In this document: positions 1 to 57,748 of the stretch, piece by piece
Numbering within the stretch: the stretch's first letter is position 1
Layout of the letters: each line of letters begins with the position of its first letter
IMG/VR virus record: IMGVR_UViG_3300042332_001032
Span: 1 to 57,748 of that record
Reading direction: 5' to 3' (one strand)
Source of the DNA: a virus
Taxonomy: Duplodnaviria; Caudoviricetes
DNA: 57,748 nucleotides
Notes under the pieces: generated by a model
Database searches by the model: none
Seen by the model: the letters and a program-made list of their open reading frames with translations, nothing else
Told to the model about the DNA's origin: nothing
Made by a program: the position numbers and the translations under genes

Positions 1-191
1 TACTTGGTATCAGCATCCAAAAGGAAGACGGAGTCTTCCTTGCTACGCCACTGAAAGGTCTTTTCATTATTTGTTTTAGATCTATTTCCATTAAAGGGGT
101 TATTTTTATTTATCTTTTTTATTTATCTTTTGCAAGGCTGAGTTTCATCTGAGTGACTAAAGATCACTCAGCTTTCACTCAGTCCTGAAAT
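1..191 (-). mobile_element. Non-autonomous IS200/IS605-derived element A (5' part; truncated by window start)
   Basis: Reverse strand reads TTAC|ATTTCAGGACTGAGTG-AAAG-hairpin(CTGAGTGATCTTTAGTCACTCAG), near-identical to copies at 43848, 46120, 55175, 57579. Confidence 0.9.
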
Positions 192-274
192 GTAAGACCT
201 GGAGGTATAATAAGATCGCTTATATCTTTTGCATCTTTTTCAGTGTACGGTCTTCTATTGAATATATTTGACAT
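179..274 (-). pseudogene. 5' fragment of a gene interrupted by element A (MSNIFNRRPYTEKDAKDISDLIIPPGLT|FQD*)
   Basis: ATG overlaps the TAA of the upstream ORF (TAATG); the frame is open up to the TTAC junction and stops inside the element. Confidence 0.6.
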
Positions 275-630
275 TAGAAAGTACCTCCATCGAGATTAAA
301 CATATTAACCTTATCTGTACTTGCAGGTATAGTAAACGTTATTTGCTCAGTTGGATTATTCATAGTGAACATACTAAACGCGTCAGTGGTTAGGTCACTA
401 TCAATTACTTCTCTCCTGAGTAATAGGCTTCCGGAGTTAGTATTAATAAAGGTAGTGAGATCCTTGACATTAATAGTGCGTAATGCTTTTTGTATTTCGT
501 CTACATGGGTAGCAGTGAAGGGTATAGATGGTGGCTGGGGCACGAAGTCTAGAATTGGCGGTGGTACGTAATGAGCATCATTTGAAACACCACCGTAACC
601 TCCATAAGCTCCTGAGTAATTTTTACTCAT
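274..630 (-). CDS. Hypothetical virion protein, paralogous to the gp14 C-terminal extension
   Basis: 118 aa; PP..FTATH and terminal FNLDGGTF motifs shared with the gp14 extension. Confidence 0.7.
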   Translation of the reverse strand: MSKNYSGAYGGYGGVSNDAHYVPPPILDFVPQPPSIPFTATHVDEIQKALRTINVKDLTTFINTNSGSLLLRREVIDSDLTTDAFSMFTMNNPTEQITFTIPASTDKVNMFNLDGGTF

Positions 631-632
631 AA

Positions 633-696
633 CTAAAATTTTCCTCCATCTAAATTAAACAGATCATAATTACTGTCTTTTTTAATTTGCACGATA
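633..696 (-). pseudogene. Orphaned 3' end of gp14 (FIVQIKKDSNYDLFNLDGGKF*)
   Basis: Start-less frame just beyond the 419-bp cassette; aligns with the C-terminus of ORF 274..630. Confidence 0.65.
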
Positions 697-1112
697 AAAT
701 AAAAATTCAATCTAATCGAATGTTGCCATTCTAAATGAATCTAAAGCAAAATTAACTTTAGAATTCTTAGATTTGAATTTTCTGAAAACTGTTTCTTTCG
801 GAACAGAAACTCTATATTTCACTTTAAAGTTTTTTAACCAAGAATGTAACTCTTTCCAATCTTTGACTTCTGGTACTTCGGTTTGCTTCCATAGCTCCTC
901 TAAGTACGTTTTCGAAGGCAATTCTGGATAGAATTGTTTGTTTTTGGTTATTATCAACCTAAAACCTCTTTGTGCTATTTCGGCACTAGAAGCTAAAGGA
1001 TCTGGTAAATCTTTATGTAGAATATTTCCTATTGTAGAAGAATAAAATTGTTGATTTTTCATATAAGTTATTTATACGAATTTGTATTCAAATCAACATT
1101 CAGAAAATAATA
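694..1112 (-). mobile_element. 419-bp duplicated cassette, copy 1 (late promoter + 116-aa ORF)
   Basis: Near-identical to 23266..23684 with unrelated flanks. Confidence 0.75.
712..1062 (-). CDS. Hypothetical protein of the duplicated cassette
   Basis: 116 aa, preceded by TATAAATA; 3 substitutions versus copy 2. Confidence 0.8.
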   Translation of the reverse strand: MKNQQFYSSTIGNILHKDLPDPLASSAEIAQRGFRLIITKNKQFYPELPSKTYLEELWKQTEVPEVKDWKELHSWLKNFKVKYRVSVPKETVFRKFKSKNSKVNFALDSFRMATFD

Positions 1113-2020
1113 TCATCCTCTTCGTTTTCTTTAGTTTCAAGAGCAAATGTCTTAGATTCTTCATCAGTTTCGACAACCGTACTTGTCATTATGTTACCCA
1201 CATTTTGACCGAGGAAGAGGCTAGATGTATTATTTGAAGTTAGGATATTAGTTAATGTAGTATTGTGAGTAGCTGTAAAGGTCGAACTTGCTGGATACGG
1301 ATTACCGGGAGGTGGCTGCGGAGGTATAAAATGCCCTGCCATATTATTGCCATCAGTATCTTGATCGCTGTCGTAATAGTCGTATATACACTTCGCACTA
1401 TTATCTGCACTATCAGGGTACGGTTGAAATAGTTTTTCAGGGTTCTCACCACCAGATAAACGCCCGTAATCCCCGCCATCGTTAATCTGTATATTATTAG
1501 GTTCTGCATGCATACCAGGTTCGTATGAGTACTCCCAACGCTTACATTTTATATACCACACATAATGACCCATTAACGTATTCGTGAGCTCTAAATGCTG
1601 ATCATCGCGCTCTGTTATCTCATATATAGGAGCACCTCTAAACCCAGGTCTATCACCGTATCCACCAAATTCATGCATTTCAATAAGATCCCCGGCTTTA
1701 GGCTCTCTACCTGGACCGAGAGATTCAGAAAATGAAGATATATGCACGACTGCAGTCATGTCGCAATCAGCCATTATACCGAATTTTGAAAGCATTATAG
1801 AGTCATTTGTTATGTTTGTGAGCATTATCATCTCACCCACACTTTCAAAAGCCGACGTAGGGTCTTCTCCGTATATAAAATTATGACTAGTTAAGGTATA
1901 ACCGTTCGTGTAATATCTTATACTTGTACCAAAGTGCTCTATTTGCTCCCTCCACCACAAGCTAAAGTTGTTACGCTCATTTGCGTTTACATCTTTATTA
2001 AGATAACGTACCTTATTCAT
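1100..2020 (-). CDS. gp14: Neck protein gp14-like with C-terminal extension (truncated by cassette)
   Basis: Motifs IYGEDP, LSKFGI, PKAGDLI, CKRWEYSYE typical of T4-like gp14. Confidence 0.8.
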   Translation of the reverse strand: MNKVRYLNKDVNANERNNFSLWWREQIEHFGTSIRYYTNGYTLTSHNFIYGEDPTSAFESVGEMIMLTNITNDSIMLSKFGIMADCDMTAVVHISSFSESLGPGREPKAGDLIEMHEFGGYGDRPGFRGAPIYEITERDDQHLELTNTLMGHYVWYIKCKRWEYSYEPGMHAEPNNIQINDGGDYGRLSGGENPEKLFQPYPDSADNSAKCIYDYYDSDQDTDGNNMAGHFIPPQPPPGNPYPASSTFTATHNTTLTNILTSNNTSSLFLGQNVGNIMTSTVVETDEESKTFALETKENEEDDIIF

Positions 2021-2021
2021 G

Positions 2022-2504
2022 TTAATTTCCGAGATGCTTTGGTTTTTTAATCCATTTATTATAATACGGATGAAACACGTATTTATTTTTATCGAAATTT
2101 AATCTATTAACTGTTAATTGATAGTTAATAAAATGATTTGAATCTGTTAATTTTCTCTTATTAAGAGCTACTGTTGCGTTAATAAGACGTTCTTTTAATA
2201 CATCTTGTAAATTAGCTGTATTTAATTGCACTATGATATCAACAGTGCAATTACTTTCTGCATGTGGTAGTAGTACAGAGTCTACTATAGCGTAATCGAG
2301 TATTCTTGTATTCGTACCTATAGCTTCAATATCATTTAAATACTGTATGTCCCTCAATATATGCGTTCTCGCAGCAGGTAGTAGCTCAGGATCTCTGCTA
2401 TCTTCAAAAAATATAAAAACCCTAGGGTCAAGACTATTATCAGCAATAGGAATATGATGATATTTTAAATAGTTTTCTGTAAATATTTTTTCAAAGCGTT
2501 TCAC
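2022..2504 (-). CDS. Hypothetical protein
   Basis: ORF; start moved to the GTG after a TAAATA motif because the upstream part overlaps a terminator. Confidence 0.65.
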   Translation of the reverse strand: MKRFEKIFTENYLKYHHIPIADNSLDPRVFIFFEDSRDPELLPAARTHILRDIQYLNDIEAIGTNTRILDYAIVDSVLLPHAESNCTVDIIVQLNTANLQDVLKERLINATVALNKRKLTDSNHFINYQLTVNRLNFDKNKYVFHPYYNKWIKKPKHLGN

Positions 2505-2537
2505 TATAATATTTAAGCTCGTGTAATCTCTTTTTAC

Positions 2538-2574
2538 AAAAAAAAAAGCCTCATAACAAATATGAGGCTTTTTT
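2538..2574. terminator. Bidirectional intrinsic terminator
   Basis: A-tract GCCTCATA-loop-TATGAGGC T-tract. Confidence 0.85.
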
Positions 2575-2598
2575 AATATCAATATACTATTTCTTTAT

Positions 2599-2898
2599 GT
2601 GAACTACCGAACGACTAAAGATCGTTCGGCTTCAGAACATAAATGTTCTTTCTTTTTAGACACTTCATCGCTTGTGCTTTTAAATGAATTTAAAAGTCTT
2701 ATTTTAGCTCCATGTCTGTAATCGGCAGTTCCTGCCGATGAAACTCCGAAGTAGTTTCTTTGTGCCTTTGATTTACTTGGTATCAGCATCCAAAAGGAAG
2801 ACGGAGTCTTCCTTGCTACGCCACTGAAAGGTCTTTTTATTATTTGTTTTAGATCTATTTCCATTGAAGGGGTTATTTTTATTTATCTTTTTTATTTA
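2599..2898 (-). mobile_element. Non-autonomous element B: omegaRNA + right end, left end deleted
   Basis: Ends in GAAG-hairpin-TAGTTCAC; similarity to other copies stops at TAAATAAAAAAGATAAAT. Confidence 0.88.
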
Positions 2899-3686
2899 AA
2901 AAATTCACCAGGTTTAATGTCTGAAGTTTTAACTTTTAGATTCTTTGTATTTTGTAGTTCTGTATGACTCACATTTAATTTTTTAAGCTCTGGTTCGGCT
3001 TTACGTTTAATGTATTGACCGAGAGCGCTTTTTGGTTTTAAGTTACTTTTAACGACGTATTTCTGCTTCGTGTTAAAACCTGTACCTGATTTCATATTCT
3101 TCAACGGTACACCGTGATCTTCAACAGATTCTTTAACTTTATTTTCCGGTGCTTCTTCATTCCCCATTTCACCTTCAGTTGATTCTTCTTCAACCTCATC
3201 TTCTTCCTCAGTCGATTCTTCCCCTTCAGTTCCCTGAGCGTCATCTATTTTATTAAGAATATCGTTAAGAGAATCTACTACGCTACGTAAATCAGAAACT
3301 AGATCTGAAACTTCATCTTGCGTATTTTCAATTTCATCAGTCATCTCGTCTCCAGATGTAGGTACTTGAAAGTCCATATTGACGTTATTTGTAGGTTTAG
3401 CACCTTGTAGTTCCTCGTCTTCAAGGAGCGTAGATCTAAAGAGTGCTTCAAACGAATTAAAAGAGTCTGTTGTAAATTTCTTTTTATCTGTCGGGGTATG
3501 ACGTAGTTTAGCTTTTGAAGGACCGTCTCCTACAAGCTTCTTATCTTTACCGTTACCGATATCGAATTTTTTTGCTACGACGTTGTCTTTAGAGTGAGTT
3601 ACTTTCTTAGTAGCTTCTCCTCTTTTTTTGCCTTCCGAAAGAAGGATATCTTCATACGCGTTTGTTAGGTTAGAATTATTATTCAT
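2892..3686 (-). CDS. Hypothetical acidic/lysine-rich late protein (possible internal head protein)
   Basis: 264 aa; TATAAATA upstream; low complexity. Confidence 0.75.
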   Translation of the reverse strand: MNNNSNLTNAYEDILLSEGKKRGEATKKVTHSKDNVVAKKFDIGNGKDKKLVGDGPSKAKLRHTPTDKKKFTTDSFNSFEALFRSTLLEDEELQGAKPTNNVNMDFQVPTSGDEMTDEIENTQDEVSDLVSDLRSVVDSLNDILNKIDDAQGTEGEESTEEEDEVEEESTEGEMGNEEAPENKVKESVEDHGVPLKNMKSGTGFNTKQKYVVKSNLKPKSALGQYIKRKAEPELKKLNVSHTELQNTKNLKVKTSDIKPGEFFK

Positions 3687-3725
3687 AAAAGTTTCTATTT
3701 ATATTTATACTATCTCGTGGTTTTT

Positions 3726-5132
3726 TCACATCGTTTCCTTAAAAAACATTCCTGTAGTAGCAGCTCGAGAAAACCCGCTTTGACAAACAGGGGATATTAT
3801 TAAAGCTTTTTGTTCATTATACGGAGCAATCAGTATTTTACCGTTTTCGAGTACAGTGCCGCCAGCGTATTTAAAACTCGCACTACCGATAGTGGTTGAA
3901 AACAGTGTCGAATCTGATATAGGATCGTAGAACGCTACCTTCTGATAACCAAAAGGTGGCATACATACTCTACCATCTGGCATTAATATACCTGATCTAT
4001 ATTTTGATGGCCCTGCTGGATAAACACCACCTGCAACTGTAAAGCTATCTGTACCTGGGTTGTATATATAAGCTGAATTAGCGTTATACGGTACAAAAAA
4101 TACTCTACCATCAGATAGCATTACAGAGCCGCTAAAATCCTGATTACCGCTAAACGTAGTACCTAAACCAGCAAACACCAAATTGTACGGCGGATCTACA
4201 TAAACTTTTAATGCGAATAGTGAATTGTGTGGTGTTAAAAGTACATACGAACCATCAAGAGAGAGCTGTCCGCTATAGAAACTTTTCTTGTTTGGTGTTG
4301 TAAATTCCGCTCCCATTATTTCTTGCACAGTATCTGTAACAGGGTTGTATATAAGTGTACCGTCATTACGCTCATATGGTATAAGCATTATATTACCATC
4401 TTTTAAAAGAACACCTCCGTTATACGGTTGCGATAGACCTGGTTTTGATAAATTTATACTAGATCTAAAAAGATTATTCGTACCCGGAGTCCATATGTAT
4501 ATATAATTGTTTATACCAGGTAATAAGCATACTCTACCATCTGGTAACAAGCAACCATCTGCAAATCCCGATGAAAGCGGCACATCTGTAAATGAAAATG
4601 AATCTGTTACAGGGTCATATATTACCCCGTAAGTATACGAATGTGGTACAAAGAGAACTCTTCCGTCCCCTAATGTAACTACCCCGCAATGAAATGTAGT
4701 TGCTAGAGAAAACGATACTGTAAATCTCTGTAGATATGTTTCTGACCCTATAATAGGTGGGTTTTGATAAACTACACTTTGTATGTAGCGTAAAAAGTCA
4801 CTAGATTTTTTAACCTGCTGAGAAACATTATCTGGAGCAATTTCTTTATACAGCTGTTTATTATTGCTACCTATATGCCACAACGGACAGTATATTTCTG
4901 ATACATTAACTATGCCGCTTGTCGGGGCAACCGCTATACCACCGGTTACCTGACCGGTTAAAGTCGAATATACTCCACCACTACTCACGCTAGCAGCTTT
5001 ATTTTTAACAGTACACGCTGCATTATCTAGAGTATTGAAATTATCATTTATAGTGTTTAATGAATCTCCTATAATTTCATTCTCATCGATTAATTTAATT
5101 GTAATATCGCAATTTTTCATAACACTATACAA
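3726..5132 (-). CDS. Beta-propeller (kelch-like) repeat protein, putative receptor-binding protein
   Basis: Repeats G.LL.DGR.F..P.....IY.P; N-terminal IGDSL..IN.NF..L motif. Confidence 0.75.
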   Translation of the reverse strand: MYSVMKNCDITIKLIDENEIIGDSLNTINDNFNTLDNAACTVKNKAASVSSGGVYSTLTGQVTGGIAVAPTSGIVNVSEIYCPLWHIGSNNKQLYKEIAPDNVSQQVKKSSDFLRYIQSVVYQNPPIIGSETYLQRFTVSFSLATTFHCGVVTLGDGRVLFVPHSYTYGVIYDPVTDSFSFTDVPLSSGFADGCLLPDGRVCLLPGINNYIYIWTPGTNNLFRSSINLSKPGLSQPYNGGVLLKDGNIMLIPYERNDGTLIYNPVTDTVQEIMGAEFTTPNKKSFYSGQLSLDGSYVLLTPHNSLFALKVYVDPPYNLVFAGLGTTFSGNQDFSGSVMLSDGRVFFVPYNANSAYIYNPGTDSFTVAGGVYPAGPSKYRSGILMPDGRVCMPPFGYQKVAFYDPISDSTLFSTTIGSASFKYAGGTVLENGKILIAPYNEQKALIISPVCQSGFSRAATTGMFFKETM

Positions 5133-6501
5133 ATAGACCCGTTAAAAAATTCATCGAAAAATTACTCTGATGAAAGTATTTTAAATATTTAGCATTTTTA
5201 TTATCTCTTGGTGCAAAAAATACATCCCCGTTTTTAAGTACTATACCGTTTGAGTGAGACACTCCAGATCCGAGCTTGAGACCTGTATCGTGTAGTGCGT
5301 CTTCACGTGGATCGTAAATTTTTATAGTATTACCGTTAATTGGAGTTATGAGTACTCTACCGTCTGTTAATAAACAACCACCACAGCTCGTACCACCTAT
5401 AGGGTATACTCCAGAAGGTATAGTAAATGTATTAGTACTCGGATCGTAAATAGCTGCTTTACTGTTATTTGAAGGTACGCAAAATATTCTGCCATCGTCA
5501 AGCATTACACCACCTGAAAATCCACCACCATTAGGGAAGCTATATGTTAAAACGTAACTCAGTAACCTCGTATTAAAGTTGTATAAAGCGGCTGATGCAT
5601 GTCCTTGTGGCACTAGAAAAACATTACCGTTAGGTAATAGCACTCCGTCAGAAAACGAATTAACAACACCAGGATATATATTCGGAGACGTTGTATTTGC
5701 TCCTGTTTTAATATTGTAAGTTCTATCTATTAAACTATTATAAGGTACGTGGTATATGCTACCATTCGGTAATAATACCCCTTTTGAAAATCCTTTAGGT
5801 GTTAAATAATTACCAGCACTTAATTCCGTAGATAAGGTATGAGTACCTGGAGTATAAACTCTTGCGTAAATTGTATTATATGGAACAAAAAACACTCTAC
5901 CGTCAGGTAGTAGTATGGTACCGGAAAACGCTTCTATAACGTTTGGGTAACCGATACCAGCTGGAATTGGTGGCTTGTAAGCTGTACCCGTTTTTATATC
6001 GTATATAAGAGCATCTGTTAGTAAATTAGGACCGAGAAATATTCTATCATCTGGTAACAGCATACTACCGCAGAATTTATCAGTTTGGTTACCAAAATCG
6101 TAAGGCAGAGTTATTAAGCTCTCACAACCCGGTAAAGGTATATTACGCTCTGTTGTATCGCTTACGTGCTTTAAAAGATTGTTAAATTCTGCATACTGAG
6201 TAGATATATTATTACCTGGAATTTCATCATAAAGCATCTTACTAGTAACACCTGTCTGCCATTTAGGGCAAGTGTTTAAATCAATAGTAAACGTACCAGT
6301 TCCGTTACTAGATGCAGGTTGTAACGTAATTCCGTTACCAGGTATAACTCTACTGACTTTATTACCCAGCGTACCACTAAAAAAAGCAGATACGGTACAT
6401 AATGCTGTATCAAGGTTTAAAAAATTATCATTTATAACTTTACGTGACTCTGACAAGCACTGTTTACTATTTATCTGGGTTGTTAAATTACAAGAACTCA
6501 T
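5125..6501 (-). CDS. Beta-propeller repeat protein, paralog 2
   Basis: Same repeat and N-terminal motif. Confidence 0.75.
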   Translation of the reverse strand: MSSCNLTTQINSKQCLSESRKVINDNFLNLDTALCTVSAFFSGTLGNKVSRVIPGNGITLQPASSNGTGTFTIDLNTCPKWQTGVTSKMLYDEIPGNNISTQYAEFNNLLKHVSDTTERNIPLPGCESLITLPYDFGNQTDKFCGSMLLPDDRIFLGPNLLTDALIYDIKTGTAYKPPIPAGIGYPNVIEAFSGTILLPDGRVFFVPYNTIYARVYTPGTHTLSTELSAGNYLTPKGFSKGVLLPNGSIYHVPYNSLIDRTYNIKTGANTTSPNIYPGVVNSFSDGVLLPNGNVFLVPQGHASAALYNFNTRLLSYVLTYSFPNGGGFSGGVMLDDGRIFCVPSNNSKAAIYDPSTNTFTIPSGVYPIGGTSCGGCLLTDGRVLITPINGNTIKIYDPREDALHDTGLKLGSGVSHSNGIVLKNGDVFFAPRDNKNAKYLKYFHQSNFSMNFLTGLFV

Positions 6502-8626: not shown

Positions 8627-8643
8627 ATTATTTTATTATTTAA

Positions 8644-10042
8644 GGTGAGTGGCTGAGAAATCTAGGCGATCTTTAGTCGTCTAGATGAATCAGCTAAAAT
8701 ATTTTTATAAATCTTAATATTTTTTGTAAAAAATACGTTCGTCTGAGATAAGTAATAATAGATGATCGGAAAAGTACAAGAACTAAAAGAGAACGAAATG
8801 CACAAAGCATTTAAGTTCCGTTTGCTTCCTACAAAGGAGCAGGAAGTTCTTTTGGCAAAGCATTTTGGCTGTTCAAGATTCATCTATAATCATTTTTTAG
8901 CTGAAAAACAGAAGCATTATTCGGAAAACAAAGAGACACTAAAATTCAATGTTTGTCAAAATATGCTTATAAAGCAGAAAAAGGACGAAGGTTATGATTG
9001 GCTTAAAGAAGTTAATTCTCAATGTTTAGTAGCGACATTGGTCAATTTAGAGACAGCATATACAAACTTTTTCAAGAAAAAATCTAAATTCCCTCGTTTT
9101 AAATCAAAAAAGAACAAAAATAGTTTCAATATTCCTCAACATGTTTCTTTGAAAGAACGTAACGTAGTTCAAATTCCAAAGTTCAAAGAAGGAATCAAAT
9201 TTGTTAAGCACAGAGAACTAAAAGGAGTTATTAAGAGCGCAACTGTTTCAAAGAATCCTTCTGGAAAATATTATATCTCTTTTCTTTGTGTTATAGAAAA
9301 ACCAACTAAACACAAAAAGACTGGAAAGAGCATCGGAATTGATTTAGGATTAAAGGATTTCATTATTACTTCTGAGGGACAAAGGTACTGTAATCCTAAG
9401 TTCACTAAAAAGTACGAGGTTAAGTTAGCAAGAAAACAAAGAATTTTAAGCAGAAAGGTAAAAGAATCGAAAGGAAGAGACAAAGCTCGTTTGAGCGTTG
9501 CAAAGGTACATGAGAAGATAACCAATTCTCGGAACGATATGCAACATAAAGTCTCCTCCAAGTTAGTAAGAGACTATGATCTGATTGCAATAGAAGACCT
9601 GAACGTGAAAGGAATGGTTAAGAACCATTGCTTAGCTAAGGCAATATCAGATGTAGCTTGGTCAAGCTTTGTGACCAAATTAAAATACAAAGCAGAATGG
9701 AACGGAAAAGAAGTGATTGTAATAGATCGTTTCTACCCGTCTTCCAAAACATGTAGTTGCTGTGATCACATCAAAGAGTCGCTTAGTCTCGATGAAAGGA
9801 CTTGGACTTGTTCTAAATGCAACACAATACATGACAGAGATGTTAATGCTTCGAAAAACATTTTAAGAAGAGCATTAGCAATTCAATCGGCAGGAACTGT
9901 CGATAACAGGAATGGAGCTAAGGTAAGACCAAAGGAGATCTCAAAGGTTTCTAGAGGCACTGGCGTTGAAGTTCTTAAAAAGAAGAATGGACGTAAGTAC
10001 ATTCTGAAGCCAGTAGGTCTTTAGTGTCTACAGGTAGTTCAC
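8644..10042 (+). mobile_element. IS200/IS605-family (IS1341-type, tnpB-only) element 1
   Basis: TTAA target, left hairpin with AAAT guide, tnpB, right hairpin with GAAG guide and TCAC end. Confidence 0.92.
8762..10024 (+). CDS. tnpB: RNA-guided endonuclease TnpB
   Basis: KAFKFRL N-terminus, RuvC GIDLG / IEDL / DRDVNA, CxxC..CxxC zinc ribbon; alternative start 8798. Confidence 0.97.
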   Translation: MIGKVQELKENEMHKAFKFRLLPTKEQEVLLAKHFGCSRFIYNHFLAEKQKHYSENKETLKFNVCQNMLIKQKKDEGYDWLKEVNSQCLVATLVNLETAYTNFFKKKSKFPRFKSKKNKNSFNIPQHVSLKERNVVQIPKFKEGIKFVKHRELKGVIKSATVSKNPSGKYYISFLCVIEKPTKHKKTGKSIGIDLGLKDFIITSEGQRYCNPKFTKKYEVKLARKQRILSRKVKESKGRDKARLSVAKVHEKITNSRNDMQHKVSSKLVRDYDLIAIEDLNVKGMVKNHCLAKAISDVAWSSFVTKLKYKAEWNGKEVIVIDRFYPSSKTCSCCDHIKESLSLDERTWTCSKCNTIHDRDVNASKNILRRALAIQSAGTVDNRNGAKVRPKEISKVSRGTGVEVLKKKNGRKYILKPVGL

Positions 10043-10062
10043 GTAAAGCTAAGATTAACTTC
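9885..10062 (+). ncRNA. Predicted omegaRNA of element 1 (scaffold + ~20-nt flank-derived guide GTAAAGCTAAGATTAACTTC)
   Basis: Scaffold from ATCGGCAGGAACTGTCGAT to TTCAC is conserved with compensatory changes across copies; boundaries approximate. Confidence 0.75.
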
Positions 10063-12222
10063 ATAGAACGCGTTTTTATGCGCTAAGCTGGTAAATGTAT
10101 TAGTGTTTGCTATTACCGTGTATGTTTGATTAGGTTGTAATAAGAACTTCGGTATTACGTGCTGTACGACATTCGCGTTTGATGCTGTGCATATATACGA
10201 ACCATTAAATTGAGGTGCTTGTTGCGGAGCTGTTGCTGTAGTGACAGCTGTTCCTTGATAGTAAACCGTAAATGCTTCTAATACACCTTGAGTTTGTACG
10301 GATTCACCATTTATTTTTAATGTTAAAACTGAAGGGCAATTTTTTGTAGTAATGTTAGCAGTCGCGGAGCCGAACATTGTTGTTATAGGGGATGTGCAAC
10401 TATCAGACATTTTATAACGTGCTTTAAGTTTATCGCTACTTATCACCCATTCAGATAGATCTGAATCTTGACCGAATGTAGTAGACCATGATACAGACGG
10501 CTTATCACAAATTACCTTATTTGCAAACGGTTCAACACACGTTGGATCGAAATAACTAAATAACGAGCAATAATTTTCCCACAAATAATTTATATTTCTA
10601 TTAACAACAATAGAGGTAACAGGTTCGTTTTGTCCAATAAAAAGCTCTTCTTTTTTATACTTTGGCGGTTTATACCCTTTACAATACGTACCATCGTATT
10701 GTAAGGTAGATCTGAATATCTCTATATTATCCCACATACGCTGAAAGGATTTATTATACACCCAATCCTGTATATACTCATCTTTATCGATCAATACCTG
10801 TTCGAGAGACCAAAAATTAGACGGTAGAGAGCTCTTTGTTGCTCTTTGTTTTAAAATGTGTACGTATTTGATAATTTTATCTCCGAATGTTACTAATGTG
10901 CTTCTAAACTCATCCTGATATATGCTGTTTATGTTTTCTACGCATTTTTTATCTTTAAATAAATAATCAAATTCAATACCAGTTCTTACGTATTTTCTTA
11001 CAAATGTATTATATGTTACATATATTATTTGCTTATTAAAGTTCGTGTTAATTTTTTTAGGTATCTGTGTTGTATCAATAGCGTATTTAAAAAGAAAATT
11101 ACCTGTGTAATCATACACTCTTATCGAGTTACTAGTTAATACGTGTACCTGATCAATTTCGTCAATAGCTACACTCAGCGGTGATACTAAATCACTGTCA
11201 ACAATGGTTGTTATCCAATTACCAGCAGGAGTGTAGCATTTAACACAATTGTTACCTGTATCTGTAACCCAGACGTTATCGTTGTTATCAATATGTATAT
11301 CATTAGGCTTTAAAAATTTATTTGTAGAAGCAATTGTACCGACTCCTCCCCATAAATTAAGCAACGTCCATGGTTTATTTGCAGTTACATCAAAACTATA
11401 TACAGCTACCTTACATTGCACGTTATCTAGCACGTATATATGATTAGCGCTATTTATCGCGATACCGCATATACTAGAAAACCGTACCACATTATCTATC
11501 GTGTATCGTACCCCTAATTGCGTAGACGTGTAATTAGATGAAAGCACGTAAAATGTCGTAGAGCGAGAAACGTAAAGTATATTGTCTCTAGAAGCAATAC
11601 CAGTATAAAAACATTTTTGTGTCGAGGAGCAATTACCGATAGGTTCGTAATAATCATCGATTAAAGGTATATTTACATTCCATATACCATCATCACACCG
11701 CGAACTATCATTACCGTCACAAGGTTCGGAGTTCCATATCTTTGCGTACTCGTTATTATCCCTTGTCATCTTCCATGTTATAGGTAATTCAGCTTTTGCT
11801 GTCGAACGCATCTCCCAATCCCAATCTGTACAGTATTTACCGAAACAGGATTTCTTAGTACACTCATGTCCTTGAAACGATAAGCATGGATCTATATCTG
11901 TACCAACACACTCTAAATCTTTCCACTTTACAACTCGAGGATTTGTTGCACTGCAATCAGTTTCACTCCAGTATATAGTTTTACAATTAAATTCGTTTTC
12001 AGGTAACGGCCCTAGCCAACCGTAGTACTCAATATAATCATAGAGCTGACAGTTTCTACTATCCAATTGCAAAAGACCGTTATGCATTACGCGTAACGAG
12101 TTATTGATATTATCTTCAACAGCAATTTCGTTAGGCATTATAAGACCAGTCTTATTACATGAAACTGGTAATTCCATACCTTTAGGAACACATCTTGTAA
12201 CGTCTATTAAATTGTTAATCAT
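10039..12222 (-). CDS. NHL-repeat virion protein
   Basis: KFLKPNDIHID..NVWVTDTGNN, PLSVAID NHL motifs; Cys/Trp-rich N-terminus. Confidence 0.8.
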   Translation of the reverse strand: MINNLIDVTRCVPKGMELPVSCNKTGLIMPNEIAVEDNINNSLRVMHNGLLQLDSRNCQLYDYIEYYGWLGPLPENEFNCKTIYWSETDCSATNPRVVKWKDLECVGTDIDPCLSFQGHECTKKSCFGKYCTDWDWEMRSTAKAELPITWKMTRDNNEYAKIWNSEPCDGNDSSRCDDGIWNVNIPLIDDYYEPIGNCSSTQKCFYTGIASRDNILYVSRSTTFYVLSSNYTSTQLGVRYTIDNVVRFSSICGIAINSANHIYVLDNVQCKVAVYSFDVTANKPWTLLNLWGGVGTIASTNKFLKPNDIHIDNNDNVWVTDTGNNCVKCYTPAGNWITTIVDSDLVSPLSVAIDEIDQVHVLTSNSIRVYDYTGNFLFKYAIDTTQIPKKINTNFNKQIIYVTYNTFVRKYVRTGIEFDYLFKDKKCVENINSIYQDEFRSTLVTFGDKIIKYVHILKQRATKSSLPSNFWSLEQVLIDKDEYIQDWVYNKSFQRMWDNIEIFRSTLQYDGTYCKGYKPPKYKKEELFIGQNEPVTSIVVNRNINYLWENYCSLFSYFDPTCVEPFANKVICDKPSVSWSTTFGQDSDLSEWVISSDKLKARYKMSDSCTSPITTMFGSATANITTKNCPSVLTLKINGESVQTQGVLEAFTVYYQGTAVTTATAPQQAPQFNGSYICTASNANVVQHVIPKFLLQPNQTYTVIANTNTFTSLAHKNAFYEVNLSFT

Positions 12223-15633: not shown

Positions 15634-15648
15634 TATTGATTATTTATG

Positions 15649-20425: not shown

Positions 20426-20454
20426 AGTGTTATATTTATTTAATCAGGTTAGCT

Positions 20455-22347: not shown

Positions 22348-22400
22348 ATAAATAAGGACTGAGTGAAAACCGAAGGATCTTTAGTCGTTCGGTAGTTCAC
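22348..22400 (+). mobile_element. 53-bp minimal element: left-end leader fused to right end through a single hairpin
   Basis: TTAT|ATAAATAAGGACTGAGTGAAAA-CCGAAGGATCTTTAGTCGTTCGG-TAGTTCAC. Confidence 0.88.
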
Positions 22401-44200: not shown

Positions 44201-44211
44201 ATAAAATTACC

Positions 44212-44580: not shown

Positions 44581-44586
44581 GAGATA

Positions 44587-44862
44587 CTAAATTTCAAAGT
44601 ATTCTGCATTTATAATTTGCTTAGGTTCTTGTAATGTGATGATATGATACAGATCATCATTGTTTAAACAGCTTTCTATATAGGTATCAAAATTACCTGC
44701 ATACCCTTTACTTTTGTGATCTAGGTATTGAGACTCATAAAGCTTATCAATTGCTTTATCTAGTATACCTACTGTAGTGTTAGTTTTTAAGCGAACATAA
44801 ACCGTACCGTCAATTGCTTTTGAGTATAGAATAATGAGGTAGTCTTTCATCAGGTGTATCAT
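44587..44862 (-). CDS. Hypothetical protein
   Basis: ORF trimmed to first ATG. Confidence 0.6.
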   Translation of the reverse strand: MIHLMKDYLIILYSKAIDGTVYVRLKTNTTVGILDKAIDKLYESQYLDHKSKGYAGNFDTYIESCLNNDDLYHIITLQEPKQIINAEYFEI

Positions 44863-44954
44863 ATATCTTATGCTGTTTCTTAGAGTTAAACAAGCTAAAA
44901 AAAATTCATTTTTCTTTGTTGAAATTATCTTGTCTGGGCGTATTATACCTAGTA

Positions 44955-45491
44955 ATGAACGATGATATAGCAAAAGTTCTTTACCATGAATCTACCATTT
45001 TAAGCAGATTGGATGAACTTGCTCATTTAATAACTGAAGATTATTCTGATAAAGAATTTACTGTAATTTCTATTCTAAATGGTAGCTTTATTTTTATGGC
45101 TGACTTGCTTAGAAGAATACAATTACCTTTACAGGTTGATTGCTGGAGTGTGTCAAGTTACCATGGTACAAAATCATCTGGTAGTATTAACTTTAGACAA
45201 CACGAGGTAGCAGATGTTTCCGGTAGACATGTACTCTTGTTAGATGATATTTTAGATTCCGGTCTCACACTATCAACAATAAAGAGTAAACTTTTAAATG
45301 AAAAGAATGCAAAGAGTGTAAAGAGTTGCGTTTTACTTTGTAAGAATGTTGTTCGTAAAGCAGAGGTAGAAGCTGATTATGTAGGGTTTAAGATCAATAA
45401 TGAATTTGTAGTTGGCTACGGTCTGGACTACAATGAACAGTACCGTAACCTCCCTTACATCGGAGTATTAAAAGAAGAAATTCACAAGTAG
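44955..45491 (+). CDS. hpt: Hypoxanthine phosphoribosyltransferase
   Basis: LNGSFIFMADL, VSSY, VLLLDDILDSGLTL, FVVGYGLDY...YRNLPYI. Confidence 0.96.
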   Translation: MNDDIAKVLYHESTILSRLDELAHLITEDYSDKEFTVISILNGSFIFMADLLRRIQLPLQVDCWSVSSYHGTKSSGSINFRQHEVADVSGRHVLLLDDILDSGLTLSTIKSKLLNEKNAKSVKSCVLLCKNVVRKAEVEADYVGFKINNEFVVGYGLDYNEQYRNLPYIGVLKEEIHK

Positions 45492-45535
45492 TAGTTGCTT
45501 TCTTAAAAAAAGATTTTAATATCAAAAATGTAGTT

Positions 45536-45790
45536 ATGAAACATATTGTTGACTCATTTACAACAACTCAAGGAAGAATAGTAACAACAAAAACTCTTTT
45601 GAATGTTATTCGTAGAATTAAAAACGGAGAAGATGACAGAGAGATTATTAACGAAGAGTTATCTGATATTCCTGTTGATGAAGAAAGAGACGTTGACGAA
45701 GCATACGAAGTCATTGATTACTGTCAAGATAAAATAGAACAAGAAGAACTTGACTATCTTATAGAGCACACTAAACACATTAAAAATTAA
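45536..45790 (+). CDS. Hypothetical protein
   Basis: 84-aa ORF with upstream TTGCTT..TAATAT-like promoter. Confidence 0.65.
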   Translation: MKHIVDSFTTTQGRIVTTKTLLNVIRRIKNGEDDREIINEELSDIPVDEERDVDEAYEVIDYCQDKIEQEELDYLIEHTKHIKN

Positions 45791-45805
45791 TTTTTATAAC
45801 CAATC

Positions 45806-46063
45806 ATGAAAGACAAAGCAAAAAAGCAAAACAAGGCAAGCAGCGAAACATACAGCATCACCCGTAATGTTATTAAGACACCCGGGCACACTGCTCGTAA
45901 GACATCCAAGCTCGGTAACACGATGCGCATGTTGAACATTGGAGACGGGTTTACATACCCGTTTGCAAAGTCCTCTAACGTACACCGTGCAGCTCGTAAC
46001 TATGGTTACGAAATGGCTACCCAACGTACCGAAAAAGGTATCTTGGCTGTTCGTTGCGCCTAA
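45806..46063 (+). CDS. Small basic protein, possibly DNA-binding
   Basis: 85 aa; L.IGD.F....V..AA......G...VR; followed by terminator. Confidence 0.7.
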   Translation: MKDKAKKQNKASSETYSITRNVIKTPGHTARKTSKLGNTMRMLNIGDGFTYPFAKSSNVHRAARNYGYEMATQRTEKGILAVRCA

Positions 46064-46077
46064 TATAAAAACAAACA

Positions 46078-46112
46078 AAAAAGCCGAGATCATAAAGATC
46101 TCGGCTTTTTTT
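46078..46112 (+). terminator. Intrinsic terminator
   Basis: GCCGAGATC-loop-GATCTCGGC-T7. Confidence 0.9.
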
Positions 46113-46119
46113 ATTTTAT

Positions 46120-46479
46120 ATTTCAGGACTGAGTGAAAGCTGAGTGATCTCTAGTCACTCAGATGAAACTCAGCCTTGCAAAAGATAAATAAAAAAGATA
46201 AATAAAAATAACCCCTTCAATGGAAATAGATATTTTAAATTATATAAAAAGACCTTTCAGTGGCGTAGCTAGATTAATTTCTATAGGATGCTGATACCAA
46301 GCAAATCAAAGGCAAAAAGAACATACTATGGATGTTCATCGGCAGGAACTGTCGATTACAGACATGGAGCTGACATAAGACTTTTGAATTCATTTAAAAG
46401 CAACGGCTATGAAGTGTCTAAAAAGAAAGAACATTTATGTTCTGGAAGCCGAACGATCTTTAGTCGTTCGGTAGTTCAC
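46120..46479 (+). mobile_element. Non-autonomous omegaRNA-bearing element D
   Basis: TTAT|ATTTCAGG...TAGTTCAC, 360 bp; between terminator and ligase promoter. Confidence 0.92.
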
Positions 46480-46487
46480 AAAAATAC

Positions 46488-46516
46488 TTGCTAGTTCCTA
46501 CTGCTTCTAGTATTAT
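46488..46516 (+). promoter_or_regulatory. Sigma70-like promoter with GTTCC extension
   Basis: TTGCTA-GTTCC..17 bp..TATTAT. Confidence 0.7.
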
Positions 46517-46530
46517 AGTCTGACAATTAT

Positions 46531-47652
46531 ATGACACTACCAACACTTTTCAGCAGAACATCGACAGGAGCCGTACAAACTTGGACTATTGAAACTGAAG
46601 GTGACAAATACCGAACAGTCTTTGGTCAAGTGAACGGCGCTATCCAAACTACAAATTGGACGGTCTGTCATCCGACAAATGAAGGTAGAGCCAATGCAAG
46701 GAACGGAGAAGAACAAGCCGTTTTTGAAGCTAAAGCTCTCTGGAAAAAGAAAAAAGATTCTGGATGCTTTGAAGATATAAAAGACATTGATACGTCTTTG
46801 TTCACCGAGCCTATGCTCGCTAAGAAATATGAAGATTATAGTAGCGAACTAGCATACCCTGTCTATTCATCTTCTAAGTTAGATGGAACTAGGCTTGTAG
46901 CAAGAAAAGATGGCCTGTATAGCAGGAATGGTAAAAAATATGCAAGCGTTCCTCATATCCAGGAAGCACTTAAACCGTTCTTTGATCAGTATCCAGAAGT
47001 TATTCTAGACGGAGAGTTATATTGTGATAAGTTTGCAAATGACTTTAATGCTATCTGTTCACTAGTAAAGAAAACAAAACCAACAGAAGAAGATCTAAAA
47101 GCTAGTAAAGCTGCTATACAGTATTGGATTTATGATTGTGTGGATGTTAAAAAGAAATTTACAGAACGTTATAGGATTATTAAAAGTGCAGTTTCTATCT
47201 GCAATAACGAATCAATTTGTCTTGTAGAATCTACAGAAGTTAATAGCGATAAACACCTTAACGACCTTTACGAAGAGTATATTCAGCAAGGCTACGAAGG
47301 ACAAATGGTACGAGTTGATAAACCATATGAAATGAAGCGTTCTAAATATCTTCTCAAGCGTAAAGAGTTTCAAGACAGGGAATACGAAATTGTTGGAACC
47401 GTGGAAGGTGAAGGCAACAAAACTGGAATGCTTGGCGCTTTTGTTCTTAAAAACGATAACGGTTTATCGTTTAATAGTAATATCAAGGGTACAAGGGAGT
47501 ATCTCCAGGAGCTCTGGAGTGATAAAGATAAGCTCATTGGTAGACTTGCTACAGTAAAATATTTTAATCTTACCCCAGTTAATGAAGATGGGAGCGGCGG
47601 AGTTCCGAGGTTCCCCTACGTTATTAAAATTCGAGAGAGCTTTGACGTTTAA
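46531..47652 (+). CDS. lig: ATP-dependent DNA ligase
   Basis: PMLA, KLDG, LDGELY, YEGQM, RS..LLK.K, PRFP. Confidence 0.95.
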   Translation: MTLPTLFSRTSTGAVQTWTIETEGDKYRTVFGQVNGAIQTTNWTVCHPTNEGRANARNGEEQAVFEAKALWKKKKDSGCFEDIKDIDTSLFTEPMLAKKYEDYSSELAYPVYSSSKLDGTRLVARKDGLYSRNGKKYASVPHIQEALKPFFDQYPEVILDGELYCDKFANDFNAICSLVKKTKPTEEDLKASKAAIQYWIYDCVDVKKKFTERYRIIKSAVSICNNESICLVESTEVNSDKHLNDLYEEYIQQGYEGQMVRVDKPYEMKRSKYLLKRKEFQDREYEIVGTVEGEGNKTGMLGAFVLKNDNGLSFNSNIKGTREYLQELWSDKDKLIGRLATVKYFNLTPVNEDGSGGVPRFPYVIKIRESFDV

Positions 47653-54977: not shown

Positions 54978-55187
54978 ATGCTTGAAATAAAAAACGGAAA
55001 CGAGACAATTACAATATCCAGCCAATCCGATTGTATTGCAATTGTGCACAGGGTTTATAGCCCGTACAAGGATTTTGCTGAAACAACAGCGTTTGCAATC
55101 GACAAAGAAGACTTGTTGGACATATTAAGACCGTATGCAAGATTAGTTAAAAACGAGCGCAATGAGGTATCTACATTTCAGGACTGA
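54978..55187 (+). CDS. Hypothetical protein (last codons supplied by element E)
   Basis: 69 aa; GGAGG RBS. Confidence 0.65.
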   Translation: MLEIKNGNETITISSQSDCIAIVHRVYSPYKDFAETTAFAIDKEDLLDILRPYARLVKNERNEVSTFQD

Positions 55188-55542
55188 GTGAAAGCCGAAG
55201 GATCTTTAGTCACTCAGATGAAACTCAGCCTTGCAAAAGATAAATAAAAAAGATAATTTAAAATAACCCCTTTAATGGAAATAGATCTAAAACAAAACAA
55301 CAAAAAGACCTTTCAGTGGCGTAGCAAGGAAGACTTCGTCTTCCTTTTGGATGCTGATACCAAGTATATCAAAGGCACAAACTAGTTACTATGGAACTAG
55401 ATCGGCAGGAACTGCCGATTACAGGCATGGAGCTGACATAAGACTATTAAAGCAATTTAAAAGCACAAGCGATGAAGTGTCTAAAAAGAAAGAACATTTA
55501 TGTTCTAGAAGCCGAACGATCTTTAGTCGTTCGGTAGTTCAC
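55175..55542 (+). mobile_element. Non-autonomous omegaRNA-bearing element E
   Basis: CTAC|ATTTCAGG...TAGTTCAC|ATG; removal restores an ATGA gene overlap. Confidence 0.92.
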
Positions 55543-55920: not shown

Positions 55921-56823
55921 ATGAGTAATCAATTAGACGGCATTGAGCCAAACGACATCATCAAAAAAGTAACGGGAAAAATCACCAAACTTTACAAAAC
56001 AAGAAGTGTAAACACAAAATATGGTGAGAAGAACTTCCAAGATGGAGAAATTGAAATCGACGGAAACGCTTACAAAATAACTTTTTGTAATAATGAACAA
56101 AAAGATTCAGTAAAAAATAGAACTGTAACTTTGTCTTCAACTCGCGGTAAACAAGGGTTGAATGGAGTTACATTTGCCGAAGAAAAATACGAGAACAAAG
56201 AAGGTAAGCAGGTTTGCAATCAAGTCATCAAGGTTTCAGTTTCGGCGAAAGTTGAATACGATGGCGCGAGCGAAGAACCTCCTCGTGTTGCAGCATCTGC
56301 CCAGCTTAAGAGTATCGTAACCGATAATCCAGAGCAGGCATTGGATGAGATCGTTGAGCTTCACCAATACATAGACTCCTTGGTTCGCATGGCATACCTT
56401 GGAAAGATCACAGACGAAGAAACCCTTGGCTCATATGTCTCATCGGTCTTCATTGAAGCTAACCGCAAGGGTATTCACTACTCGACCAAGGCCGAAGCAC
56501 CGAAGAAGGAAGAGACTGTCGAGGTAAAGGAAGAACTTAATCCCGACGACTGGGGTTCAGCCATCGTCCCATATGGATCACAGAAGGGAAAGAAGCTGGC
56601 AGAAATTGGCAAGCCTCGATTGATTAAATTGTATCATTATTATTGCAACTTGAATTTCGGTGAAGGAAATTTCACGACTCCATTTTCTAAGTGCGTAAAA
56701 AAAGCAGCAGAAGATCTTTCAATATCTGGCCCGATCAATCCCGGCAATCTGCATTCATATAAAGGTGCTAATATGTCAATTGACGAAGAATACTCAGAAA
56801 TAGCAGACGACATTCCATATTGA
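55921..56823 (+). CDS. Putative single-stranded DNA-binding protein
   Basis: OB-fold-like N-terminus and acidic DDIPY C-terminus. Confidence 0.6.
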   Translation: MSNQLDGIEPNDIIKKVTGKITKLYKTRSVNTKYGEKNFQDGEIEIDGNAYKITFCNNEQKDSVKNRTVTLSSTRGKQGLNGVTFAEEKYENKEGKQVCNQVIKVSVSAKVEYDGASEEPPRVAASAQLKSIVTDNPEQALDEIVELHQYIDSLVRMAYLGKITDEETLGSYVSSVFIEANRKGIHYSTKAEAPKKEETVEVKEELNPDDWGSAIVPYGSQKGKKLAEIGKPRLIKLYHYYCNLNFGEGNFTTPFSKCVKKAAEDLSISGPINPGNLHSYKGANMSIDEEYSEIADDIPY

Positions 56824-56826
56824 TTC

Positions 56827-57098
56827 TGTTCTCCCCAGAACACCTAATTTAATTTATGAAAACCTACAAATTCAAAAATGGTGTGGAAATATCCCCGCGC
56901 AAACAACCATGTGGTGCGTTTTACGCTATAGGTGAAACGCATATCGAAGAAAATAAGGTTTTCGATGTGCTTCAAAACGGAAAACTTCTCGCAACGGCGG
57001 AAACATGGGATCAGGCAAAAGACATGGTATTCAATATTATATCAATGATAAAGCATTCCGATTTGACTAATTAACCTTGTTCTCCCCAGAACACCTAA
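56827..57098 (+). repeat. 21-bp direct repeat TGTTCTCCCCAGAACACCTAA (56827-56847, 57078-57098)
   Basis: Exact intergenic copies, each a TGTTCT/AGAACA hairpin. Confidence 0.85.
56856..57074 (+). CDS. Hypothetical protein
   Basis: 72 aa between the repeats. Confidence 0.65.
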   Translation: MKTYKFKNGVEISPRKQPCGAFYAIGETHIEENKVFDVLQNGKLLATAETWDQAKDMVFNIISMIKHSDLTN

Positions 57099-57107
57099 CC
57101 TAATAAA

Positions 57108-57386
57108 ATGAAACCAAATCCAAATTACAAATCATCGCCACCAGCAATACTTGAATTGCATCATGATAATGATTTTGGACTGATGGCAACTGAAACCCGA
57201 TCAGTATATTACGATAAAACAATAGCAGAAAAATGTTATCAAAGATTACTAAGAATTGGTAAGCTTAAAAAACTACTTGAGCAATGTGATTTTTGGCTCG
57301 CTCACCTTGAAGATTATACTAAAGGAAAAGCTGGTGATGAAATTACACAGCTTCGTAGTAAAATTGAAACAGAATTAAAACATTAA
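57108..57386 (+). CDS. Hypothetical protein
   Basis: 92 aa. Confidence 0.65.
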   Translation: MKPNPNYKSSPPAILELHHDNDFGLMATETRSVYYDKTIAEKCYQRLLRIGKLKKLLEQCDFWLAHLEDYTKGKAGDEITQLRSKIETELKH

Positions 57387-57404
57387 CCTAAACACAAATA
57401 CAAC

Positions 57405-57602
57405 ATGAAAAAGAAACCAGAATTAGAATTGTTCAGCCCGACTCAAGAGGGAATCATTGTTCCTCTGTCAAAATACCTAAAACAAATGTCCGAGTTCGCT
57501 AAAACCGAATGGCCGGGCATCAACATTACGGAATCAAAAATCAAGGAAATCTGGAAGTTAGTAGCTTCAAATATTTACATTTCAGGGCTGAGTGAAAGCT
57601 GA
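57405..57602 (+). CDS. Hypothetical protein, 3' end interrupted by element F
   Basis: Frame crosses the TTAC junction and stops inside the element. Confidence 0.55.
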   Translation: MKKKPELELFSPTQEGIIVPLSKYLKQMSEFAKTEWPGINITESKIKEIWKLVASNIYISGLSES

Positions 57603-57748
57603 GTGATCTTTAGTCACTCAGCTTTCACTCAGCCTTGCAAAAGATAAATAAAAAAGATAAATAAAAATAACCCCTTTAATGGAAATAGATCTAAAACAAA
57701 TAATAAAAAGACCTTTCAGTGGCGTAGCTAGATTAATTTCTATAGGAT
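57579..57748 (+). mobile_element. Non-autonomous element F (5' part; truncated by window end)
   Basis: TTAC|ATTTCAGGGCTGAGTG-AAAG-hairpin; interior matches element D type. Confidence 0.9.

Follow-up and report, generated by a model that had tools for sequence, protein, structure and literature searches.

The window analysed here is a 57,748-nt stretch of phage DNA that makes up one entire IMG/VR virus record (IMGVR_UViG_3300042332_001032) without end repeats. It carries two tnpB-only elements of the IS200/IS605 family, T1 and T2, together with six dispersed, gene-less cassettes, A to F, that are related to them. The cassettes are almost certainly tnpB-less deletion derivatives of IS605 elements which hold omegaRNA genes, of the type known as palindrome-associated transposable elements (PATEs). 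TnpB is intact and under purifying selection, and the cassettes are under structural selection at the level of RNA and not of protein. To the chain of events that this anatomy suggests, in which cassettes would be transposed in trans, make their own guides, load TnpB, direct cleavage and be restored by recombination repair, we assign a probability of roughly 0.6. A first-pass annotation, made from the letters of this DNA alone, had proposed such a network; its inventory of elements proved accurate, and several of its functional claims needed revision.

T1 (8637 to 10042, + strand, with the left boundary placed to within 3 nt) and T2 (27989 to 29388, + strand) each consist of a left-end (LE) hairpin, tnpB, an omegaRNA core and a right end (RE), and are recovered by self-BLAST and a repeat search as two 1.4-kb copies with 84% identity. 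Their tnpB open reading frames (ORFs), at 8762-10024 and 28113-29372, encode proteins of 420 and 419 aa that both score above cut-off for PF12323 (HTH_OrfB_IS605), PF01385 (OrfB_IS605) and PF07282 (Cas12f1-like TNB zinc ribbon), and that align end to end with ISDra2 TnpB (8h1j/8exa; residues 14-393, E ~5e-72). As the first-pass annotation had claimed, the RuvC D-E-D residues are kept, in GIDLG, IAIEDL or IAIENL, and HDRDVNA, and both CxxC pairs are conserved relative to ISDra2 TnpB. The ratio of nonsynonymous to synonymous substitution (dN/dS) is 0.15 over 66 pairs of 12 phage copies of tnpB, a set in which a third element, T3, was entered as 250 aa by choice of start codon, its full frame being open. 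The omegaRNA core and RE of T1 overlap the 3' end of its tnpB ORF, and the final bases of the same RE provide the stop codon of ORF 10039-12222 on the - strand. T2 follows a TTAT at its insertion site and lies upstream of the portal gene, whose start (27948, - strand) is about 40 nt away. Compared with GenBank phages, a tnpB element has as its sole match an 83-nt stretch of a Paenibacillus phage transposase, and the cassettes have no match.

Self-BLAST and the repeat search place the six non-coding derivatives where they had been predicted, and the LE starts at 191 (-), 44200 (-), 46120, 55175 and 57579 coincide with the predicted positions exactly. Full-length copies, represented by C (43848 to 44200, - strand), D (46120 to 46479, + strand) and E (55175 to 55542, + strand), are laid out as an LE hairpin, an AT-rich spacer, an omegaRNA gene of about 225 nt and an RE. 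C has TTAT 5' of its LE, D is inserted 3' of TTAT, and E has the 5' flank CTAC. Cassettes A (1 to 191, - strand) and F (57579 to 57748, + strand) are LE halves cut by the start and the end of the record, with TTAC just 5' of the LE of A (192-195, - strand) and 5' of the LE of F. Cassette B (2599 to 2898, - strand) comprises a spacer, an omegaRNA gene and an RE, without an LE hairpin, none being present at 2860-2898. The expected total of nine related elements is completed by a 53-nt solo remnant at 22348 to 22400 (+ strand), in which a T2-type LE start is joined through one hybrid hairpin to an RE end ..GGTAGTTCAC, with TTAT 5' of it; a reading of the flank of this mini-element as a tnpB fragment was rejected. 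All elements together amount to about 4.8 kb, or 8% of the window.

The cassettes occupy tight positions among the phage genes. B lies between ORFs 2022-2582 (-) and 2892-3686 (-), with a covariance-model hit at 2599-2752 (168.7 bits) and a predicted guide in the 16-20 nt below 2599, and C fills the entire gap between ORFs 42900-43847 (+) and 44212-44580 (+). The DNA ligase gene starts (46531) 51 nt beyond D, which itself sits just past a hairpin resembling a terminator (46077-46111); the predicted guide of D overlaps the promoter-like sequence TTGCTA-N17-TATTAT upstream of that gene. The LE hairpin of E (within 55175-55240) is chimeric, with a poorly pairing left arm, CCGAAGGA opposite TCACTCAG. 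B and E are probably no longer movable by the transposase TnpA, judging from these ends, although the RNA gene is kept in both.

The cassettes, 300-370 nt long where not cut by the ends of the record, are 85-98% identical to each other, and their final ~150 nt alone match the tnpB elements (75-77%), in alignment to the final ~150 nt of tnpB plus RE. Comparison with the tnpB elements shows that the ~75 nt before this core originated in frame from the tnpB region coding for the second half of the zinc finger and RuvC-III, and have since diverged into a cassette-specific 5' domain, in which the blocks GACCTTTCAGTGGCGTAGC and GGATGCTGATACCAAGTA.ATCAAAGGCA are invariant in 13/13 cassettes and absent from every tnpB element. 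The scaffold of ~160 nt predicted earlier is therefore kept up to the RE as claimed, and is to be corrected in length to ~225 nt with a 5' part peculiar to the cassettes; the retained part has the size of a complete omegaRNA (~230 nt in ISDra2). The motif ATAAATA occurs in one or two copies in the spacer of every cassette. At least nine ORF starts also have this motif on their own strand, 6-13 nt upstream (examples at 1069-1075, 3696-3702, 15641-15647, 20433-20439, 22802-22808, 23641-23647, 27955-27961, 34670-34676 and 44197-44203), with 46 matches in the window against 33 expected. It may be a phage promoter or start-region motif, and resembles the T4 late-promoter core. We note that cassettes B to E, the copy at 4965-5344 of record G003 and that of locus L301 are mosaics of a few stem and loop variants, a build that points to gene conversion among cassette copies, and that two copies (G3b and L301) join the cassette 5' domain to a tnpB-type 3' core.

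Selection on RNA structure was assessed in an alignment of 13 cassettes, comprising four from the window, five from three other viral records and four from metagenome contigs. RNAalifold predicts 54 pairs, in which 97.4% of cells are paired, compared with 31-44% in slid controls, and 20 of the 54 pairs are changed on both sides, compared with 3-5 in the controls; the covariation score was matched by 0/500 shuffles. Helices 3 and 5 are found only in cassettes and have 4/4 and 4/6 covarying pairs, with helix 5 occurring as GAACAT/ATGTTC, GAAACT/AGTTTC and CTAGTT/AACTAG, and selection must therefore have acted in the cassettes themselves. The core shared by 25 RNAs (13 orphan and 12 tnpB-linked) has 38 pairs, 96.6% paired and 16 covarying, and the unpaired linkers GGAGC, TAAGAC, AAAAAG, GAAGCC and AGTTCAC are invariant throughout. 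The compensatory stem change AGGAAT/GTTCTT versus AGACAT/GTGTCT to which the first-pass annotation had drawn attention is real, pair 41/103 of alignment A3 being C-G in 13/25 and A-U in 12/25. The RNA of cassette D (46250-46479) has a minimum free energy z-score of -4.2 relative to shuffles. The predicted omegaRNA ends at TTCAC and runs on into a flank that is unique to each site, so that a structured RNA that overlaps the RE as well as the 3' end of tnpB passes without a break into a predicted guide taken from the flank, as in systems of the OMEGA type (obligate mobile element-guided activity). The scaffold is also more conserved than the spacer of the cassette: between the phage copies and the four distant cassettes, identity is 77% in the omegaRNA 5' domain, 73% in the core and 83% in the RE, compared with 50% in the spacer, a contrast that is absent within the phage, where all segments are 84-90% identical. 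Every cassette retains an open frame of at least 66 aa in the TnpB frame. A protein-coding reading was ruled out because dN/dS of this frame is 1.06 (36 pairs, nine copies) and because 1-nt indels near the 3' end shift the end of the frame in 4/13 cassettes. Searched against Rfam at gathering score, the window yields only its five tRNAs, and the best match on cassette D has E = 1.1.

Both ends have the features of the IS200/IS605 family, with subterminal imperfect palindromes and no terminal inverted repeats. Every RE consists of GAAGCC, a hairpin with the loop TCTTTAG and the terminal GGTAGTTCAC; the LE hairpins are nested and have the same TCTTTAG loop, with stems that vary between copies by compensatory changes. 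Among the 18 LE junctions that are readable in the window, records G001-G003 and the four metagenome contigs, the 5' flank is TTAC in eight, TTAT in eight, CTAC in one and unclear in one. Insertion is 3' of this short transposon-associated motif (TAM) and without target-site duplication, and the flanks beyond the RE differ at every site, each being unique. One empty allele was found in a distantly related phage: TTAT|ACAGGTGGATGGTAAA in G004 corresponds to RE|ACAGGTGGTTGGTGAA of the cassette at the end of G003. DNA 0.3 kb farther downstream is orthologous (75% over 396 nt), and in G004 the site precedes the stop codon of a 182-aa gene by five codons. This pair shows precise insertion 3' of TTAT. 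The first-pass annotation had spoken of element-free alleles of co-infecting relatives at many loci, and this single case is what was found; 11 other sites compared with six related records gave no case with both flanks adjacent. Guides compared with 2.7 Mb of sequence had no match with up to 2 mismatches beside TTAC or TTAT apart from the G003/G004 site, and among contigs from four lake-water DNA runs over 43500-47000 none bridges an empty C or D site. Metagenome contigs break at cassettes, and cassette ends carry many different flanks. Cassette F and the RE half at the end of G003 were considered as one split insertion; this was rejected, the G004 gene upstream of the empty site having no tblastn match in the window. 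Two further observations concern insertion sites. The cassette of L287 (450-830) occupies the loop of a hairpin that resembles a terminator (AAAGAGCCTAA..TTAC, element, TCTTAGGCTCTTT), and its placement and that of cassette D fit insertion into single-stranded or hairpin DNA. In G002 (L078, ~11270-11320) the cassette LE is immediately preceded by another LE hairpin, of T1 type, the elements being nested or in tandem.

The cassette core was found in only three other viral records, G001 to G003. G001 (95.8 kb) and G003 (33.5 kb) have the repeats alone in common with the window. Their GC content is similar to that of the window, they correspond to other regions of a complete relative, and each starts or stops within a cassette; both probably belong to this same phage or to one very like it. 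Over these two records and the window, a covariance model scores 14 omegaRNA genes: three are tied to tnpB (T1, T2 and T3, the last of them on G001), the other 11 being orphans. One cassette is present in G002, which belongs to a different phage (66% DNA identity in the capsid), and one in each of four metagenome contigs; a 17-mer scan of metagenome contigs gave 74 loci, of which five hold a cassette (two of them identical) and the rest are chance matches. A covariance-model search of 1.37 Mb for diverged orphan RNAs returned 25 hits, all already known, and the model had 0 hits at 44 loci that surround the ligase genes in related phages. Eight other viral records, with backbone identity to the window of ~70% or less, encode TnpB proteins that are 79-92% identical to that of T2, and the covariance model found no cassette in these relatives, including the complete genome G004. 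This lineage of TnpB was seen only in viral contigs: the one hit in a supposedly bacterial metagenome-assembled genome contig is identical to one of the eight viral records, and the best true bacterial TnpB hits are 54% identical. A tnpB copy in one relative has an uncommon layout. At ~2850-4350 of L160 (record G005), compared with L161 (G004), tnpB lacks an LE hairpin and is flanked by an intact gene (MKQYTPDKWLVIKIEGGDFPLTYK...) and by 23 codons from the 5' part of a second allele of that gene, cut by the RE, and the intact allele carries TTAT and a target that differs from the guide at ~4-5/16 positions; the arrangement is reminiscent of a homing nuclease that stands free next to an allele resistant to its cleavage.

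That no tnpA is present in the window, as the first-pass annotation had stated, was confirmed by a negative search for the Y1 TnpA domain PF01797, which as a control gave hits in six known genomes; the window record is 27% complete. The first-pass annotation had also proposed looking beyond the window for tnpA and further tnpB, which brought to light T3 and no TnpA: PF01797 was found in 0/4 of the window and G001-G003, in 0/5 of G004-G008, where G004 is a complete genome of 202,880 bp with terminal repeats, and in 0/3 of the further close relatives G009-G011. The elements are therefore non-autonomous. PF01797 is present in 17/48 viral records, all of which have a more distant TnpB (~54% identity), and several of the 17 have the same RE architecture of GAAGCC, a hairpin with the TCTTTAG loop and GGTAGTTCAC. 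A compatible TnpA thus exists in the gene pool, and its supply in trans is plausible. A transposase of this type acting in trans is needed for spread to at least 15 different TTAY sites, because homing alone copies an element to the same locus only. The proposal that homing spread the cassettes must be amended accordingly, and the unique flanks remain as that proposal described them.

It is likely, at the odds given above, that the following steps account for these features. An IS200/IS605 lineage (IS605-group, ISDra2-like) of freshwater T4-like phages would have colonised this phage and reached new sites by single-strand 'peel and paste' transposition, catalysed in trans by a Y1 TnpA that came from the host, from a phage infecting the same cell or from genome regions not yet sequenced. 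Each cassette, from an AT-rich and promoter-like spacer, would be transcribed across its RE to give an omegaRNA whose last 16-20 nt are unique flank; such an RNA would start near, or be processed from, GACCTTTCAG and end 16-20 nt beyond TTCAC. TnpB from T1, T2 or T3 would load these RNAs in trans and cut DNA that carries the TAM and the guide sequence, in other words the locus in its cassette-free state, and the break would be repaired from a cassette-bearing genome in a recombination-proficient phage. As such, a cassette could be restored after excision and copied into cassette-free co-infecting relatives, and homing between phages fits the anatomy. A bolder proposal, which we regard as tentative and on present indications rather unlikely, is that the orphan omegaRNA genes, at least 11 in number and each with its own promoter, form together with a small number of TnpB genes a TnpA-independent, multi-locus RNA-guided homing and interference system. 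If it were true, every cassette would label the locus it occupies as 'self', alleles that lack it would be cleaved in co-infecting relatives under its guidance, and both the cassettes and the phage genes linked to them would be driven through the population; the phage would then represent a naturally occurring intermediate with many guides, between one transposon RNA and an array of the CRISPR kind.

Several points weigh against this chain. The window's own TnpBs differ from the cassettes in RNA subtype, the T1/T2 subtype being DNRNGAKV/AGGAAT and the cassette subtype DYRHGAKI/AGACAT, and their cross-loading is assumed. The cassette RNA core is of the T3/L165 subtype, and the nearest tnpB is that of T3, a protein only 61% identical to those of T1 and T2 and encoded on another record, G001. 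The transposition step depends on an unseen enzyme, because TnpA was found neither in the window nor in eight related viral records. The single empty site mismatches the guide at 2/16 positions, B is without an LE, and in E the LE hairpin is defective and CTAC stands where the TAM would be. The 5' domain is the most invariant block of the cassette, and its conservation is not explained by a model of TnpB guides, because the equivalent part of the ISDra2 omegaRNA is dispensable. Finally, covariation in the RE hairpin could come from recognition of a DNA hairpin by TnpA and not from RNA function.

Among other explanations, the likeliest is plain parasitic expansion, which we nevertheless consider unlikely. 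The cassettes would then be hitch-hikers like MITEs (miniature transposable elements with inverted repeats), multiplied by TnpA in trans, neutral or slightly harmful and without part in homing or exclusion, and their RNA would be kept only for persistence of the element after excision, as in bacteria, or would be unused in the phage. The canonical IS605 ends with a TTAY target at the junctions are in agreement with this, as are the mosaic copies, which are expected of repeats under gene conversion. Contigs break at every copy, and none crosses an empty C or D site; in run X1 the depth of cassette words is ~4- to 46-fold that of the flanks, a value that sums over organisms and is not a copy number. 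The expansion is lineage-specific, like a recent burst, because relatives G004-G008 carry tnpB but no cassette. Expansion of this kind is harder to reconcile with the lack of TnpA in all 12 closest records, and with covariation in the cassette-only helices, which indicates selection on RNA during the evolution of the cassettes. Purifying selection on TnpB is strong also in copies without an LE hairpin, which are therefore not movable by TnpA.

A different task for the cassette RNA seems quite improbable to us. The invariant three-way 5' domain, along with the presumed TnpB-binding core, might form a regulatory or decoy RNA that titrates TnpB, guides binding without cutting at promoter-proximal flanks, or serves an unrelated phage function. 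The invariant blocks of the 5' domain, which are in no tnpB element and not in Rfam, speak for such a task, as does the position of several cassettes at gene starts or ends, where C fills a gap and the guide of D falls on promoter-like sequence, and derivatives of TnpB that phages encode and use as RNA-guided repressors (TldR) are reported in published work. However, the TnpBs here retain all nuclease motifs, unlike TldR, and the 5' domain derives from in-frame 3' coding sequence of tnpB and may simply be the natural 5' part of an omegaRNA freed from coding constraint. Least probable is a role at the level of DNA, in which the hairpins would be signals for recombination, replication or packaging. 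Such a reading could draw on the strong hairpins of the repeats, which occur in at least 11 dispersed copies and in both orientations, in a phage group (the T4 type) that starts replication from recombination intermediates; but related phages including the complete G004 do without cassettes, the copies are bounded by IS605 ends at a TTAY site, and long-range helices covary, such as helix 7 with strands ~70 columns apart in alignment A2, which therefore makes sense in folded RNA and not in duplex DNA.

The record has a completeness of 27% (CheckV) and a GC content of 35.9%, and its DNA is present in lake-water metagenomes of several studies, with no RNA run listed among the data sets that contain 43500-47000. 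Its genes include those for a major head protein (17897-19339; phrog_138, E 3e-83), the portal (26059-27948, - strand; phrog_213), a RecA-family protein (41016-41960; PF00154, 38 bits), the ATP-dependent DNA ligase (46531-47652), tail-fibre proteins and five tRNAs. The first-pass annotation had spoken of a T4-like phage with recombination-dependent repair. The RecA-family gene supports the second half of this description; the first is valid in a broad sense alone, because the best identity of the head protein, to gp23-type capsid proteins of cyanomyoviruses, is 33.5%, and on this comparison the phage is a distant T4 relative within the T4 superfamily. A gene for a 518-aa HNH homing endonuclease (16259-17815, + strand; phrog_3339, E 1e-112) directly adjoins the major head gene, and the phage therefore hosts classical homing elements too. 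Two further repeats were observed. A 419-nt duplicate, 98% identical, lies at 694-1112 and 23266-23684 and holds a 116-aa ORF (712-1062 and 23284-23634), with neighbouring ORFs that are single-copy, and a 12-nt period recurs in seventeen overlapping copies at 23681-24028, within ORF 23690-24601, which encodes a protein of 4-residue repeats.

TnpB is among the commonest of prokaryotic genes and is the ancestor of Cas12, and the role of TnpB-only copies without a transposase is an open question. The present system offers a natural case in a large lytic-type phage replicon, in which orphan guide-RNA genes outnumber nuclease genes by about 4 to 1. If the RNAs are used in trans, it would be an RNA-guided counterpart of phage homing endonucleases, and it would provide, in compact form, TnpB/omegaRNA pairs that are cross-compatible and for which the insertion sites predict a TTAC/TTAT motif; without such use, it would still be an unusually dense transposon burst in a phage, taking up ~8% of the window.

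The IS200/IS605 elements insert as single strands 3' of a tetranucleotide. In IS608 of Helicobacter pylori, which is autonomous with both tnpA and tnpB, the target TTAC lies 5' of the LE, an AAAG-like tetranucleotide guide lies 5' of the LE hairpin and the RE cleavage site is a few bases 3' of the RE hairpin; ISDra2 is flanked by TTGAT. The elements described here are like IS608 in the layout of ends and target, and their sequences are unrelated beyond the family level. They are like ISDra2 TnpB and its omegaRNA (PDB 8H1J, 8EXA, 8BF8) in a full-length protein match, in domain order, in the D-E-D and zinc-ribbon motifs, in a C-terminal tail encoded by the RNA scaffold and in a guide RNA that ends at the transposon RE. 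Unlike in ISDra2, tnpB here reaches to 18 nt before the RE, and the entire scaffold is therefore coding; the flanking motif is TTAC or TTAT, no tnpA is adjacent and the replicon is a phage.

Excerpts of the work of Meers et al. (PMC10055086) describe PATEs of IS605-type elements in Geobacillus stearothermophilus that often encode omegaRNAs, and propose their use by TnpB in trans. The idea of omegaRNAs acting in trans is thus already in print for bacteria, and its phage version, 'non-restorative homing' into co-infecting phages, is named as a theoretical possibility in the consulted part of a 2026 review (PMC13565253), which also describes TnpB-dependent, TnpA-independent homing of IS605 into co-resident plasmids. 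Partial texts further report a single tnpB in a cyanophage (bioRxiv 10.64898/2026.02.14.705889) and TnpB-only elements with MITEs in insect viruses (PMC6004678), and at the level of titles and abstracts, supplements not covered, no phage with many orphan omegaRNA cassettes was found described.

The predicted outcome, in which an element-free allele in a co-infecting relative is cut and then repaired from the genome that bears the element, is like that of the free-standing and intron-borne homing endonucleases of T4-like and jumbo phages (SegF and others, as summarised in that review, PMC13565253; also PhiPA3 gp210). Those enzymes recognise DNA by protein, whereas here recognition would be by guide RNA and TAM, with one nuclease able to serve many loci by way of separate RNA genes. 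Phage miniature type V CRISPR systems and TldR, as far as excerpts describe them, are similarly phage-encoded TnpB-derived proteins programmed by small RNAs; unlike them, the present system has no CRISPR repeats or spacer acquisition, its guides are fixed by the insertion site and its nuclease motifs are intact. The closest likeness is to the Geobacillus PATEs, which are also gene-less, have LE and RE, keep the omegaRNA and, as proposed there, need TnpA and TnpB supplied from other loci (excerpts of PMC10055086). Those lie, by the same excerpts, in a bacterial chromosome that also holds tnpA, in contrast to the lytic-type phage lineage here, in which no tnpA was found, and the phage cassettes differ in their invariant, cassette-specific 5' RNA domain and in a ratio of orphans to tnpB of 11:3. 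PATE-type omegaRNA elements are therefore of a kind known from bacteria, and it is their phage setting that is unusual.

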